DNA of 64,000 nt, taken from positions 36,704,001 through 36,768,000 of the forward strand of contig OX597821.1 of NCBI GenBank assembly GCA_951406725.2, read 5' to 3'. Within the stretch, counting starts at the first letter, position 1. Every line of letters starts with the position of its first letter. Below are positions 1 through 56,682 of this stretch, one piece after another. Origin of the DNA: Octopus vulgaris. Its lineage: Eukaryota. The notes below the pieces were generated by a model. That model had not been told where the DNA came from. It searched no databases and was given only the letters and a program-made list of their open reading frames with translations. The translations under genes were made by a program, and so were the position numbers.

Positions 1-481
1 TTCCCCTCTCTCCCTCACGCTTTCTCCTTGTCTCTCTTGTTGCTCACACGTGACCAACGGCTATCTATCTTTCTTTCTTCCACTTCCTTCCTAAAGACAA
101 GACGTGCTTTTGACTGTCTCTTTTCAAAGCTCGCTTCTCCAGCGTTCACCACTTTACCTCGTTATGGCTCAACAGCCTTTCCCGTTTCTTTTTACTATTT
201 GTTTACACTATCCTGTTTTTGTCACTACTTTAACCCTCCACAAATCCCAATATTTTTTTAATTTGCTTTACGGGAACGACTGTTTTAAGGAAGTCGCGTC
301 CTGCTCCTACGTTCGAAACGCGGAGTAGATAAAACTGATGAAGGGAATGTTCGTTATGTTGCCTGTCTCATTTCTCTATTTGTTTCTTTTGTTGTTCGAA
401 AAAAAAAAGATCGTTTTCCATGTTTTTGTTTTGTATGTTCTCGTTTCTCATTTTGTTCACGTTCTTTTGACGTCCTGTACC

Positions 482-22199: not shown

Positions 22200-22607
22200 A
22201 ACTTGGAGAAGAGAAAGGCAAAAAAAGCCCGTATTGTCTGTTTCCTATACTGTTTCTTTATTGTACTGTTTTTTCTTCATTTTATTGTACTGTTTTTTTC
22301 TTCATTTGTATTGTTTTTTCTTCATTTGTATTGCTTTTACGTCCTGTTTTTGTCACTTGTTTTACCCCTCTGCAAAAGAATTTTATTTAATTCCTTTTGC
22401 AGGAAGGACTGCTTCGACTGTGTTCTGTCCTTACCTTTGAAACACACTTTGAGTCGAACTAGGGACAGCTGATGAAGGGCAATTTTCCTTGTATTGTTTG
22501 TCCTGTACTCTGTTTTTTCGTTGTTTAAAAAAAGTCCGTTTCCTGGTTTGATTTTATGTTCTCGTCTCTCGTTGTGTTCTACGTTTATTTGTGGTGTCCT
22601 GTACTCA
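22200..22607 (+). mobile_element. Short non-coding element between (TA)n tracts with a rearranged hammerhead motif (copy 2)
   Basis: (TA)n on both sides; homologous to 1-483. Confidence 0.7.
22389..22484 (+). ncRNA. Candidate non-circularly-permuted hammerhead-like RNA, copy 2 (best preserved)
   Basis: Stem II gaagg(22403-07)/ccttt(22434-38). Stem III tgtgt(22419-23)/acaca(22442-46). GUU 22422-24. Stem I ctgtcctta(22425-33)/tagggacag(22460-68). GAAA 22439-42. CUGAUGA 22469-75. Confidence 0.65.
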
Positions 22608-23296
22608 TATATATATATATATATGCATGTATATATACATGTAGATGTAAGTATGTACATATATGTATGTATATATGCATATATTTTATTTATTTATTAT
22701 ATTACTATATATATATATATATATATATATGAGCAAAACGCCCCACCCCCACCCCACCGTCCAATGGACGGTGCTGAGTTGTCAAACATTTAAACCAAAT
22801 TTTCTCAAAACAACTTGTCCGACCGTCCCATAGGCCTCCCCTTGAGAAACACTGATTTAACCTAAATTTGGAGACACCAGCAAAAGAAGAAATATAGATA
22901 TCGATCGCAACAGCTGATGTACTTGCGCGTACAAATGCACATTCCCACGGCTTTATCGATCGCATTCTCATCCGGAATCGATTTTTGTAATTTTTTCAAG
23001 ACTTATACACGCCCTGATACCGTCGGTATCTACATATCAAATTTGGGCGCATCGGATGCAGGATGCCCGAGACCCTAGACGACACACACACACAGACAGA
23101 CAGAACGGATTTTATATAATAGATATACATAAACATATATATATATATATGCATAAACATATATATACATATATACAAAATTTAGAGGACTGACCACTAA
23201 AAGTGGACAGCCTTTATGCTAGATATTTTTTTTAAATATGCTAGGCCACTGGTTCTAATTGATTAATATCAATTTCTACCCTTATTTAATTTTATA

Positions 23297-28271: not shown

Positions 28272-29665
28272 AAGAATCTGAGCACTTGTAGAGATGGAAG
28301 AACTTACTGGACTTACGAAAAAATACGTATATAACTATCAAAGAAGCCGATAAAGGGAGCACTGTCGTCGTCATGGACAAAATTTACTATAAAGACTCAG
28401 CAGTCACAATGCTAGAGGACAACAACTGCTATAAAAAAGCAACTCACCAAAAAATCAAAAATAATGAAAAACCTCACAACTCTTTTAAAGAAGTATAACA
28501 AAGTCTTAACCAGCAAGGAAACTGACTATTTAAACCGCTTCAAATGTAAAACGAGCAACTTTTATGGTTTACCTAAAGTCTATAAATATAAAAGGATAAG
28601 TGATGCCTGTAAATCCTCAGGAAACAAATACATACAGCTAACATCTCCAGATGATCTAAAATTGAGACCAATCATAGCAATCCCGGCATGTGAAACACAC
28701 AGACTCAGGAACCTCTTGGACATCCTCCGAAAACCCTTCCTAAAACATATACAGAGTGACGTAAGATATTACTCAGACATGCGAAATCATTTGCCAAAAA
28801 CGGTAAATAAACATACAATTTTTACTTCATTTGACGTTGTCAACCTATACACCAACATTCCCCATGAATATGGAAGAACTGCAATCCAACACTGGTTAGA
28901 CACTCACCAATCTGAACTTTGAATACGCATAGAAAAATAATTTATCATTGATAGGCACAGATTCATACTTGAAAACGACTTTTTACCGTCAACGGTTCGG
29001 ATTACCGCCAAACATCAGGAGCGGCGATGGGTACGAATGTAACCAACATACGCCAGCTTAGTCATGGGATTCCACGAACAAAAAATCTACAACCAATCTC
29101 TACTAATATTTGGTGACACGTTCCATATACAACTAAGGAACAATTGGGAAAAGATACCTGGATGATTGCTTTATTTTATGGCAGTAAAATCTTGACAAGT
29201 TAACTGAATTTAAAAACATGTTTAATAACCTCATCCAATTCACAATGAAGTTTAACCCCAAAGAAATCGCCTTTCTGGATATCCTAATCAAAACCAAGAT
29301 GGGAAAATAGAAACGGATATATTCTACAAACCAGTCGACACCAAACAGTACCTTCTTTTCACATCATGTCGCCCGAAACACACCAAACTCAACATTCCCT
29401 TCAACCTGACAAAACGAATTTGTACTATAGTATCAGAACCATCCAAGCGTGAACAATGACTAGAGGAAATGAAGGACATACTTATCCAAAGAGCCTTCCC
29501 TCCTGGCATAATCAGCAACAGAATAATCAAGGCGAAACAAATGGATATCAATGAAATGAGGAAAACAAAAAACAAAAGGAAAAATGTCTTACGATTTGTG
29601 TCAGCCTTCAATCCCAGGAACACCGAAATATTTGATCACATCCACAAAACGCCTTCCTATCTTAG
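28272..29665 (+). mobile_element. Penelope-like element reverse transcriptase pseudogene
   Basis: ITIKEADKG, FYGLPKVYK, LRPII, SFDVVNLYTNIP, GAAMGT, RYLDDCF, FLDILI, DIFYKPVDTKQYL; several stops and frameshifts. Confidence 0.92.
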
Positions 29666-30093
29666 AACTTGGAAAGGAGGTGGAACGCCATTACATGGAC
29701 CAAATCTTCGTTTTTATGATAAAAGTACGACCATGTTCCATCCCCTGTCTCTAGATCGACCCCCCCCCCAAAAAAAAAAACGTATCTTCATTGGCACCAA
29801 ATGCTTTCAGCTGATCAGAGCAGACTTCCGCGCTCCTTTGTTTCAAATTGTGGGTCAACTAACGAGCTACCCACGTTGCATACTCTTTCCAGTCTTCACC
29901 AGATGGGGAACCTATACGCCAAGGAAACTGGGGAAACCGGCCCTATGCTCCACAAGGGGCAAAAGGGATAAAAAAGAAGAAGAAGAAAGAAGAAGAAGAA
30001 TGAATGAATGAATACACACACACATATGTAAATATATACATAAAGCTAAACATAGACACGCAAACATATATACATACACACACGTACACATAC

Positions 30094-49536: not shown

Positions 49537-49787
49537 TATACAAAATGGGACAACAAAACATCCAGATAGACGATACAAAGAAAACAAGGACGGGTCATTC
49601 GAAGTTTTCTTTCCTCAGTCGAGTACCAGATTATCTTCGCAATTTCGGCTGGATACTCGTCTGAGGAAAGAAAACTTCGAATAACCCGTCCTTGTTTTCT
49701 TTGTATCGTCTATCTGGATGTTTTGTTGTCCCACTTTTGTATACCCTAACTGTCCGGATGTTTTGCGTTCTCGTCCCATTTTGTATT

Positions 49788-53034: not shown

Positions 53035-53538
53035 CCCTTATTTTGTGGACGTATTAATAACACGAACCAAGTATGGATTCAGGACATCCGTATACCACAA
53101 GCCGACCTTCACTGAACGATACCTCAACTTAAATTCTTACCATCCATACAGTATAAAGAGAAGGATTGCTCAGTGCCTAAAACATCGTGCAAAGAATATA
53201 AATAGCGATCATGATACCCACCAAGAAGAAATGATTAAGCTAAGTAACAATCTATTAAGCAAAAACTACCCCAAAATCATACTATTCACTCCAATTGTGA
53301 AGAAAAAAGAGGATGAAACCGATAAACTGTCCACAGTCTGTCTACCTTGTATGAAAGGCCTTTCCGAAAAGATACAAAATATATGCGGCCCATATGACAT
53401 CAAGATAGTATTCAAGAGTAATACAACACTTCGCAAATAACTCCTTCGAGTAAAACCACCAATAGAAGAGAATATGACCAAAGACTGCACGAACTCCATC
53501 TCATGCATCTGTGGTATGTTATACAAAGGTGAAACATG
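53035..53538 (+). mobile_element. PLE RT thumb, linker and start of GIY-YIG
   Basis: FVDVLITRT..FRTSVYHKPTFTERYLNLNSYHP..LPCMKGLSEKI..SISCICGMLYKGET. Confidence 0.9.
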
Positions 53539-56478: not shown

Positions 56479-56682
56479 TAATCCAAACATGAAAACACAA
56501 AGAGAAAACACAACAACGCGAGGACGTGGGAACAAGTATAATGTCATTCGACGCTCAGGAAAGGAAAGATAGAAGGAGGATTTAACGTTTCGAATTGAGC
56601 TCTTCGTCAGAAACATAGGGAAAGGAAAGATCCAATGAAGGGAAAACGGAGGAAAAAATCGCCAACTGTACACACGCGATCA

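Follow-up and report, generated by a model that had tools for sequence, protein, structure and literature searches.

A decayed copy of a Penelope-like unit in Octopus vulgaris and the predicted split-core hammerhead ribozyme of its intact relatives

Results

Two copies of a non-coding unit in the window

The window, that is, the whole stretch of 64,000 nucleotides of Octopus vulgaris DNA analysed here (contig OX597821.1, positions 36,704,001 to 36,768,000), begins within a copy of a non-coding unit that we assigned to subfamily A. Directly 5' of this copy lies a partial copy of the unit's 3' end, forming a pLTR-like partial tandem, and the TA-rich tail of the copy runs to about 660. The following features were assigned to it:

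1-482, + strand: subfamily A copy of the non-coding unit; its 5' start lies about 158 nt before the window (L031:1144)
234-237, + strand: 5' strand of stem IV, CCCT; partner at 342-345
238-273, + strand: hairpin V, directly between stem IV and G10.1
274-278, + strand: strand 10.x of stem II, GAACG, supplied from upstream; partner at 310-314
280-287, + strand: 5' strand of helix I'; partner mostly deleted in this copy
288-294, + strand: first strand of a purine-rich internal loop; GAA 290-292 opposite AGTA 324-327
295-300, + strand: strand 16.x of stem III and the triplet GUC; intact copies are predicted to be cut after C300
301-309, + strand: strand 1.x of stem I and a 3-nt linker to stem II; mutated at 301, 304 and 305
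310-322, + strand: block G (stem II 11.x, GAA, stem III 15.x)
332-333, + strand: site of a 10-nt deletion in which stem I lost its 3' strand and helix I' its end
335-345, + strand: core CUGAUGA, followed directly by the 3' strand of stem IV, AGGG

A second copy, at 22.4 kb, belongs to subfamily B:

22217-22607, + strand: 5'-truncated copy of the young subfamily B, followed by a TA-rich tail
22365-22480, + strand: near-intact predicted ribozyme fold of subfamily B
22365-22369 with 22476-22479, + strand: stem IV; 22370-22402: hairpin V
22403-22407, + strand: upstream strand of stem II; 22409-22418: helix I'; 22419-22423: stem III
22424, + strand: H17 (T22424); 22425-22430: stem I, with its 3' strand at 22463-22468
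22434-22446, + strand: block G; 22469-22475: core

When the subfamily A copy was used as query, about 4000 first-look candidates were obtained, and the best 40 scored were 82-85% alike. Subfamily B likewise gave about 4000 first-look candidates in the 2.8-Gb genome, its best 40 scored relatives being 94-100% alike.

The two loci align past their shared motifs (211-500 against 22342-22624, 68.5% over 305 columns, E 1e-19). As the earlier note on this DNA had read them, the letters of stem II (gaacg 274-278/cgttc 310-314 versus gaagg 22403-22407/ccttt 22434-22438) and of stem III (cgcgt 295-299/acgcg 318-322 versus tgtgt 22419-22423/acaca 22442-22446) are present, and both copies have the triplet (GUC with C300, GUU with T22424), GAAA and CTGATGA followed by aggg in the same order.

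From three compensatory swaps between these copies it had been argued that the structure is selected. The stem II swap is a double transversion, but ccttt itself reflects one of three private changes of the B copy (at 22438, 22460 and 22480): the family reads ccttc, and the private C>T at 22438 makes G10.1-C11.1 a G-U. The same swap segregates within subfamily A, where G/C was found in 13, C/G in 9, a mismatch in 4 and another or unreadable state in 11 of the 37 copies. The two stem III swaps are real as well; taken alone, however, they give weak support, because both are of the CG>TG or CG>CA type and such transitions could come from decay. Indeed, this is the commonest decay here, with mismatches at 13-15% of CpG versus 5-8% of other sites in the three old subfamilies. 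Selection on the structure is strongly supported by covariation across the family, but the argument from three swaps in two copies is weaker than had been stated.

The window copy has lost stem I

To describe the decay of the window copy, we compared it with the majority of its own cluster (37 copies), in which stem I reads TTGTCC/GGACAA. One of these six pairs is left (hand count). Stem I is missing because of the 10-nt deletion between 332 and 333 together with the changes at 301, 304 and 305. The suspicion that the copy at 261-348 had decayed was therefore justified, and the suggested check against a subfamily consensus did restore stem I: at least five of the six pairs are held by 34 of the 36 other cluster copies, and four pairs by the remaining 2. 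In RNA reads of relatives, a 10-nt insert at the deletion point was present in 108 of 221.

Other details had to be revised. The cta/tag pairing is not stem I, whose real 3' strand was deleted between 332 and 333, and neither is the alternative ctgctc/gagtag register. The structure begins at 234, with stems IV and V, rather than at 261, and helices IV, V and I' had been missed. Hairpin V of the window copy has also lost two pairs through G>A changes at 240 and 270, relative to the cluster majority, and nested folding of this copy recovered stem IV and not hairpin V (z -0.8).

Judged by its sequence, the window copy is a broken relic of a carrier of the predicted split-core hammerhead described below. 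Since it is unable to form stem I, it is predicted not to cut, and cutting after C300 is not expected in this copy. Its use is that of a pointer and of a natural negative control.

Wiring of the predicted ribozyme

In the 5' half of the motif, the elements follow in the order stem IV, hairpin V, stem II 10.x, one spacer base, helix I' and internal loop. The middle consists of stem III 16.x, H17, stem I 1.x, 2-5 nt, stem II 11.x, GAA and stem III 15.x, and the 3' part of a loop, the helix I' partner, stem I 2.x, CUGANGA and the stem IV partner. The order of the blocks is S-G-C and not the circularly permuted C-G-S of hammerhead types I, II and III. The predicted core strand is opened between A9 and G10.1 and would be closed by the two extra helices IV and V.

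Pair counts in 10 families are consistent with this assignment. The upstream stem II strand matches 11.x by Watson-Crick pairing in 49 of 50 cells, compared with 9 of 40 for the strand after the core. The latter contributes instead to stem IV, whose runs of 3-11 bp are Watson-Crick in 39 of 40 cells. Nested folding predicted stem IV in all six copies folded, and in the five near-intact ones it recovered both IV and V (z -1.5 to -3.9). CTTT, which precedes the 3' strand of hairpin V, was considered as the stem IV partner and proved wrong; the real partner is CCCT, 5' of hairpin V.

There are zero bases between stems IV and V and between V and G10.1; stems IV and V can therefore, in principle, stack, which would place A9 beside G10.1. 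At the joint between stem III and helix I', the GAA/AGTA loop is identical in the majorities of A, C, E1, E2, G, I and J, occurs as variants in D and F, and is absent from B. GAA opposite AGTA is presumably loop-E-like and thus normally straight.

Targeted Rfam scans returned 11 and 1 weak matches, among which there was no hammerhead family. Among the 150 of 442 matches listed from an Rfam scan of the whole window, microsatellite matches to miRNA models dominate.

Covariation across subfamilies

A 15-letter stretch around the core has 4777 exact matches in the genome, compared with 2 for its reversed control. Subfamilies C, D and E were obtained from secondary matches of the searches, and F, G, I and E2 from an unbiased sample (the first 100 exact core matches on one contig); family J was found inside a Naiad locus. 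Clustering covered 193 of 250 copies, the other 57 being too truncated, and clusters of 1-2 copies (4 of 193) were set aside. The MAFFT alignment was out of register between subfamilies in block S, and the pair counts were made without it. Cluster I (3 copies) was excluded from the covariation and 10-family counts, and helix I' from the tree simulation.

Covariation over eight subfamilies, seen in stems I, II, III and V, supports the rearranged hammerhead proposed earlier. In the eight majorities, pairing is intact in 210 of the 216 cells of stems I-V, and two-sided changes occur at 16 of 27 positions. Stem I has 47 of 48 cells paired and 5 of 6 positions with two-sided changes; the corresponding values are 39 of 40 and 3 of 5 for stem II, 38 of 40 and 4 of 5 for stem III, and 54 of 56 and 4 of 7 for hairpin V. 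Double transversions occur from G-C to C-G in stems I and II, and from A-U to U-A in stems II, III and IV. Family J has a stem IV of 10-11 bp and a swapped second stem II pair.

As a null, we simulated changes along a tree made from the 3' tail, with a fully paired start and with the number of variable sides matched to that observed. The simulated means were 167 paired cells and 3.2 two-sided positions, and 0 of 4000 runs reached either observed value. The simulation overstates significance, because the registers were chosen for maximal pairing and the null lacks a CpG effect.

The hammerhead core is conserved: all 11 positions (CUGANGA, GAAA, U16.1-A15.1) are invariant in the eight majorities and present in the window copy. 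N7 is T or A and H17 is C, A or T, never G, in these majorities, and within J N7 is T, G or A. The 3' tail has 31 of 57 columns invariant in the same comparison. The invariance of the core is partly due to construction, because F, E2 and G were sampled through the core. Single copies do gain core changes (25 of 1350 non-CpG core cells, versus 561 of 14408 others); selection would therefore appear to act mainly on the source lineages.

Some copies depart from this core. The majority of cluster I (L242, L309, L306; three copies) has GTAC in place of GAAA. In cluster I, L010:1152-1243 and L287, the GAAA block reads GTAC, GTTA, GACA or GATA, and helix I' shows a clean compensatory change. The lineage of cluster I has possibly spread with a damaged core.

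The carrier is a Penelope-like unit

On sequence criteria, we regard the carrier as a non-coding Penelope-like unit that is present in thousands of copies. The copies share a fixed 3' end, are truncated at the 5' end and lie mostly in (TA)n tracts. Among 250 copies, upstream pieces are tandem in 20 and inverted in 23. A partial upstream unit was found in 16 of 280 copies, with a period of 554-897 nt, and 8 of these reach a second cut site. The same features (truncation, tandems, inverted pieces and (TA)n) are described for the insertion of Penelope-like elements (PLEs; PMC8557442).

The unit was searched for ORFs and none was found, nor was an RT or GIY-YIG domain common upstream. In 100 unbiased copies the common sequence stops at most 656 nt upstream of the core. 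A GTAAG donor-like motif often occurs about 30 nt after the unit start. LINE-type ORFs are located near some copies (L332, with a 1095-aa frame, L280, L246, L199:8209-9474 and L200:77-1627); they look like neighbours rather than partners, because the common unit sequence stops well before them.

Family J (L353:2913-3126; L370-L399) is also non-coding and has the same wiring, with a period of 554-656 nt and 902 first-look candidates. The head of its unit resembles that of subfamily A, and a Naiad remnant carries one J copy in its 3' UTR.

We also looked for traces of cutting. Relatives of subfamily A gave reads in both directions in one RNA run, with no pile-up of ends and no GT-AG joint. The junction of a unit-length circle would have the sequence of a tandem, so that both look alike in short reads. 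For subfamily B, 0 reads covered the motif in three RNA runs labelled as another organism. The 5' truncation points are not clustered at the predicted cut, which lies at about -44 (3 of 100 fall within -41 to -48), and 1 of 16 upstream partial units begins there. In run X15, the RNA depth at L031:1602-1711 rises from about 2 to more than 300 near 1609-1613, where the reads show loose ends and joints to the opposite strand. We do not read this step as cut RNA, because it lies 8-12 nt downstream of the predicted cut; most likely it reflects transcribed copies with an inverted 5' piece.

Several Naiad ends show the wiring, with no DNA similarity to the unit found

Craig et al. (2021; PMC8557442) present Naiads as lacking a canonical hammerhead, with some marked 'HHR_core' or 'HHR_half_core'. 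By eye, the 3' ends of two octopus Naiad consensus sequences from this paper show the split wiring, and so do the ends of three Acropora and two further Naiad consensus sequences, out of a published total of 54. The published octopus Naiad motif occurs 254 times in this genome, compared with 0 for the control, and at 6 of 30 loci the Naiad RT match is followed, 1.1-1.55 kb downstream, by a Naiad-type motif.

The likeness to the octopus Naiad is limited to the design of the motif, beyond which no DNA similarity was seen. The unit tail had no match in 45 GIY-YIG, 25 Naiad-motif and 30 Naiad RT loci, of which only the best matches were scored, and Naiad-type loci showed no DNA similarity to the unit beyond simple repeats and separate insertions. 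The unit also differs from Naiads in being non-coding, that is, in having no Naiad ORF (N-terminal GIY-YIG and C-terminal RT).

The best GIY-YIG matches came from canonical PLEs, which have a 781-aa ORF and a C-terminal endonuclease. These were considered as enzyme donors and rejected, as their ends lack the motif; no autonomous partner of the unit was found among the loci scored. A young canonical PLE family (L196:2745-5087, L197-L203) has RT and C-terminal GIY-YIG, an open 781-aa frame in many copies and an overlapping upstream ORF at most 479 aa long; near the PLE ends in L196, L199 and L203, CTGANGA was not seen. The window itself contains broken fragments of canonical PLE RT at 28295-29666 (+) and 53042-53302 (+), which are 43% and 32% identical to the L196 ORF.

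Discussion

Relation to known ribozymes and retroelements

The closest relatives in design are the type-SGC hammerheads (HRIMA-1 and variants; Eckert et al. 2023, PMC10085705). As described there, they share the S-G-C order, two pseudoknots, the full core, the short linker between stems I and II (2-5 nt here, typically 3 there) and a helix at the far end of I-II. Cleavage in vitro has been shown for type-SGC ribozymes that have this linker and this I-II helix (PMC10085705). In type-SGC ribozymes the stem II strand follows CUGANGA within 0-2 nt. In contrast to them, the 10.x and I' strands are 5'-terminal here, block C is split and closed by IV and V, and both strands of helix I' are joined to those of stem III. 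The present motif has thousands of copies in an animal genome, whereas Eckert et al. found none of the type-SGC ribozymes in the genomes of known organisms (PMC10085705). Eckert et al. assume that block C is uninterruptible (PMC10085705); the split wiring counts against our model in this respect, because it contradicts that assumption.

The unit resembles Naiads (PMC8557442) in its 5' truncation, partial tandems, inverted 5' pieces, (TA)n targets and, by eye, wiring. Animal non-LTR retrozymes and minimal PLE hammerheads (PMC7229834, bioRxiv 10.64898/2026.07.22.740005) are likewise non-coding tandem units with one hammerhead each, and such units are proposed to move by means of PLE enzymes via unit-length or circular RNA. 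Retrozyme and PLE hammerheads are of type I and form dimers owing to a weak stem III. Here, in contrast, stem III is stable and the dimer, if real, would be topological. Dimer-dependent cleavage as such has a precedent in PLE hammerheads (PMC4209133).

The pseudoknot hammerhead of Zhan et al. (2024, PMC11300833) is similar in having an extra helix IV and a pseudoknot at the place of stem II, with the core unchanged. There, however, helix IV forms the stem of the loop in the pseudoknot and lies coaxially with stem III and the pseudoknot helix, and the sections consulted describe no helix at A9/G10.1. Core insertions of 1-2 nt only are reported in the corresponding section of Perreault et al. 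(PMC3088659). The relevant parts of PMC10162972, PMC13725137, PMC6765202 and bioRxiv 10.64898/2026.09.16.752053 contain no match to the split wiring. In the mostly open-access literature searched, we found no hammerhead split at A9/G10.1, an earlier report among hammerheads with additional helices being possible, and no type-SGC-like ribozyme in an animal genome.

A predicted split hammerhead and how it might work

We propose that the window copy is a decayed copy of a PLE-like unit whose intact relatives carry a predicted split-core S-G-C hammerhead, likely to cut tandem transcripts to unit length, and give this reading a probability of roughly 0.75. In hammerheads, G12 acts as base, the 2'-OH of G8 as acid and the cut falls after H17 (PMC11300833). 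Given the conserved core, the split version would use the same chemistry and also cut after H17. Stems IV and V would stack and keep A9 adjacent to G10.1, in an arrangement resembling that of the crossing strands in a four-way junction. In the type-SGC fold, stems II and III are stacked on each other by their ends (PMC10085705). Helix I' and stem III would form one hairpin, with a loop that pairs with both flanks.

The ends that must meet are far apart in the hammerhead fold, and A-type versions therefore probably need either a sharp hinge or a swapped pair. A swapped pair, in which the loop of one copy pairs with the flanks of the next, would be likelier where the joint looks straight. Swapping would restrict cutting to transcripts with two motifs and release one unit. 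The cut RNA may then be circularised and serve as template for a reverse transcriptase of Penelope type, probably that of a Naiad. A circular unit could template longer-than-unit copies, as has been proposed for PLE hammerheads (PMC4209133).

Alternative readings

The alternative closest to this proposal is that all versions cut as monomers, with the III/I' joint (a k-turn, a bulge or a purine-rich loop) acting as a hinge or helix I' melting in the active state, and we think its chances somewhat short of even. The Naiad-type joint consists of GA/GA and a 3-nt bulge, which we take to be k-turn-like, with a bend of about 115 degrees, and subfamily B has a 6-nt bulge at this place; both would fit a monomer, as the normally straight loop of A, C, E, G and J would not. 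Most A-type subfamilies, however, are loop-E-like with a bulge of at most 1 nt, and yet a monomer would need a bend of 110-148 degrees at the joint (six versions; rough arithmetic with 2.8 A per pair). Published Naiad versions, roughly counted by eye, point the same way: one needs 137 degrees, and two cannot close even at 180. A symmetric swapped dimer, by simple reasoning, would close at any arm length, and on this rough geometry many versions may fold only as such dimers. Provided that the ribozyme is active, dimer-dependence of at least the straight-jointed versions is, in our estimate, an even bet at best. Doubtful to us is the stronger version, in which the monomer cannot fold at all and the domain swap between two motifs is a topology sensor of tandem, pLTR-containing transcripts that Naiads of several animal phyla and their non-coding parasites have in common.

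Other alternatives question the split or the function. The motif might be an ordinary type-SGC ribozyme with an unbroken block C, in which the AGGG that follows CUGANGA provides G10.1, with one extra A, and the upstream strand serves as a regulatory or distal extension. All 10 families do have G two bases after A9, where it could pair with C11.1, and 34 of 40 cells pair if G-U is counted. Yet only 17 of 40 are Watson-Crick when one base is skipped in this way, which is no excess over shuffles, the bases after the core serve stem IV, and by eye the second base after A9 is C in three published Naiad versions; we consider an unbroken block C very unlikely. Somewhat less improbable, though still unlikely, is a hammerhead-derived structure that is kept for RT recognition or 3' end protection and no longer needs to cut. 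The altered GAAA of cluster I and the lack of an end signal in RNA or truncation points would fit such a role. It sits poorly with the 11 catalytic positions, which are kept together with a non-G H17 across Naiads and subfamilies with divergent stems, while N7 and H17 vary. Finally, the paired changes might be by-products of methylation decay in inverted repeats, or chance. This would account for the stem III swaps between the two window copies, both of them CpG-type transitions, but not for the double transversions and non-CpG swaps; with no simulation matching the observed values, we give this explanation hardly any weight.

Returning to the split hammerhead, its confirmation would add a wiring to the six permutations so far considered possible, one in which the catalytic strand itself is open and a junction of two helices holds it. 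These would also be the first non-circularly permuted hammerheads in animal genomes in the literature searched. The apparent 'half core' of Naiads would be explained, and the view that Naiads spread without a ribozyme altered. The young, near-identical subfamilies B and C make a role of the ribozyme in PLEs testable. If the dimer reading is true as well, it would represent a novel mechanism by which an RNA detects another copy of itself.

Other motifs in the window

CTGANGA with GAAA 15-20 nt further on, in the standard order, occurs at 56610 (-), 62864 (-), 63316 (-) and 50641 (+). These are possible minimal or decayed type I hammerheads; 56610 alone passed a simple descriptor, and did so weakly. 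At 49612-49667 there is an inverted repeat that has CTGAGGA on both strands and near-identical flanks, and it is probably an inverted pair of a repeat end.
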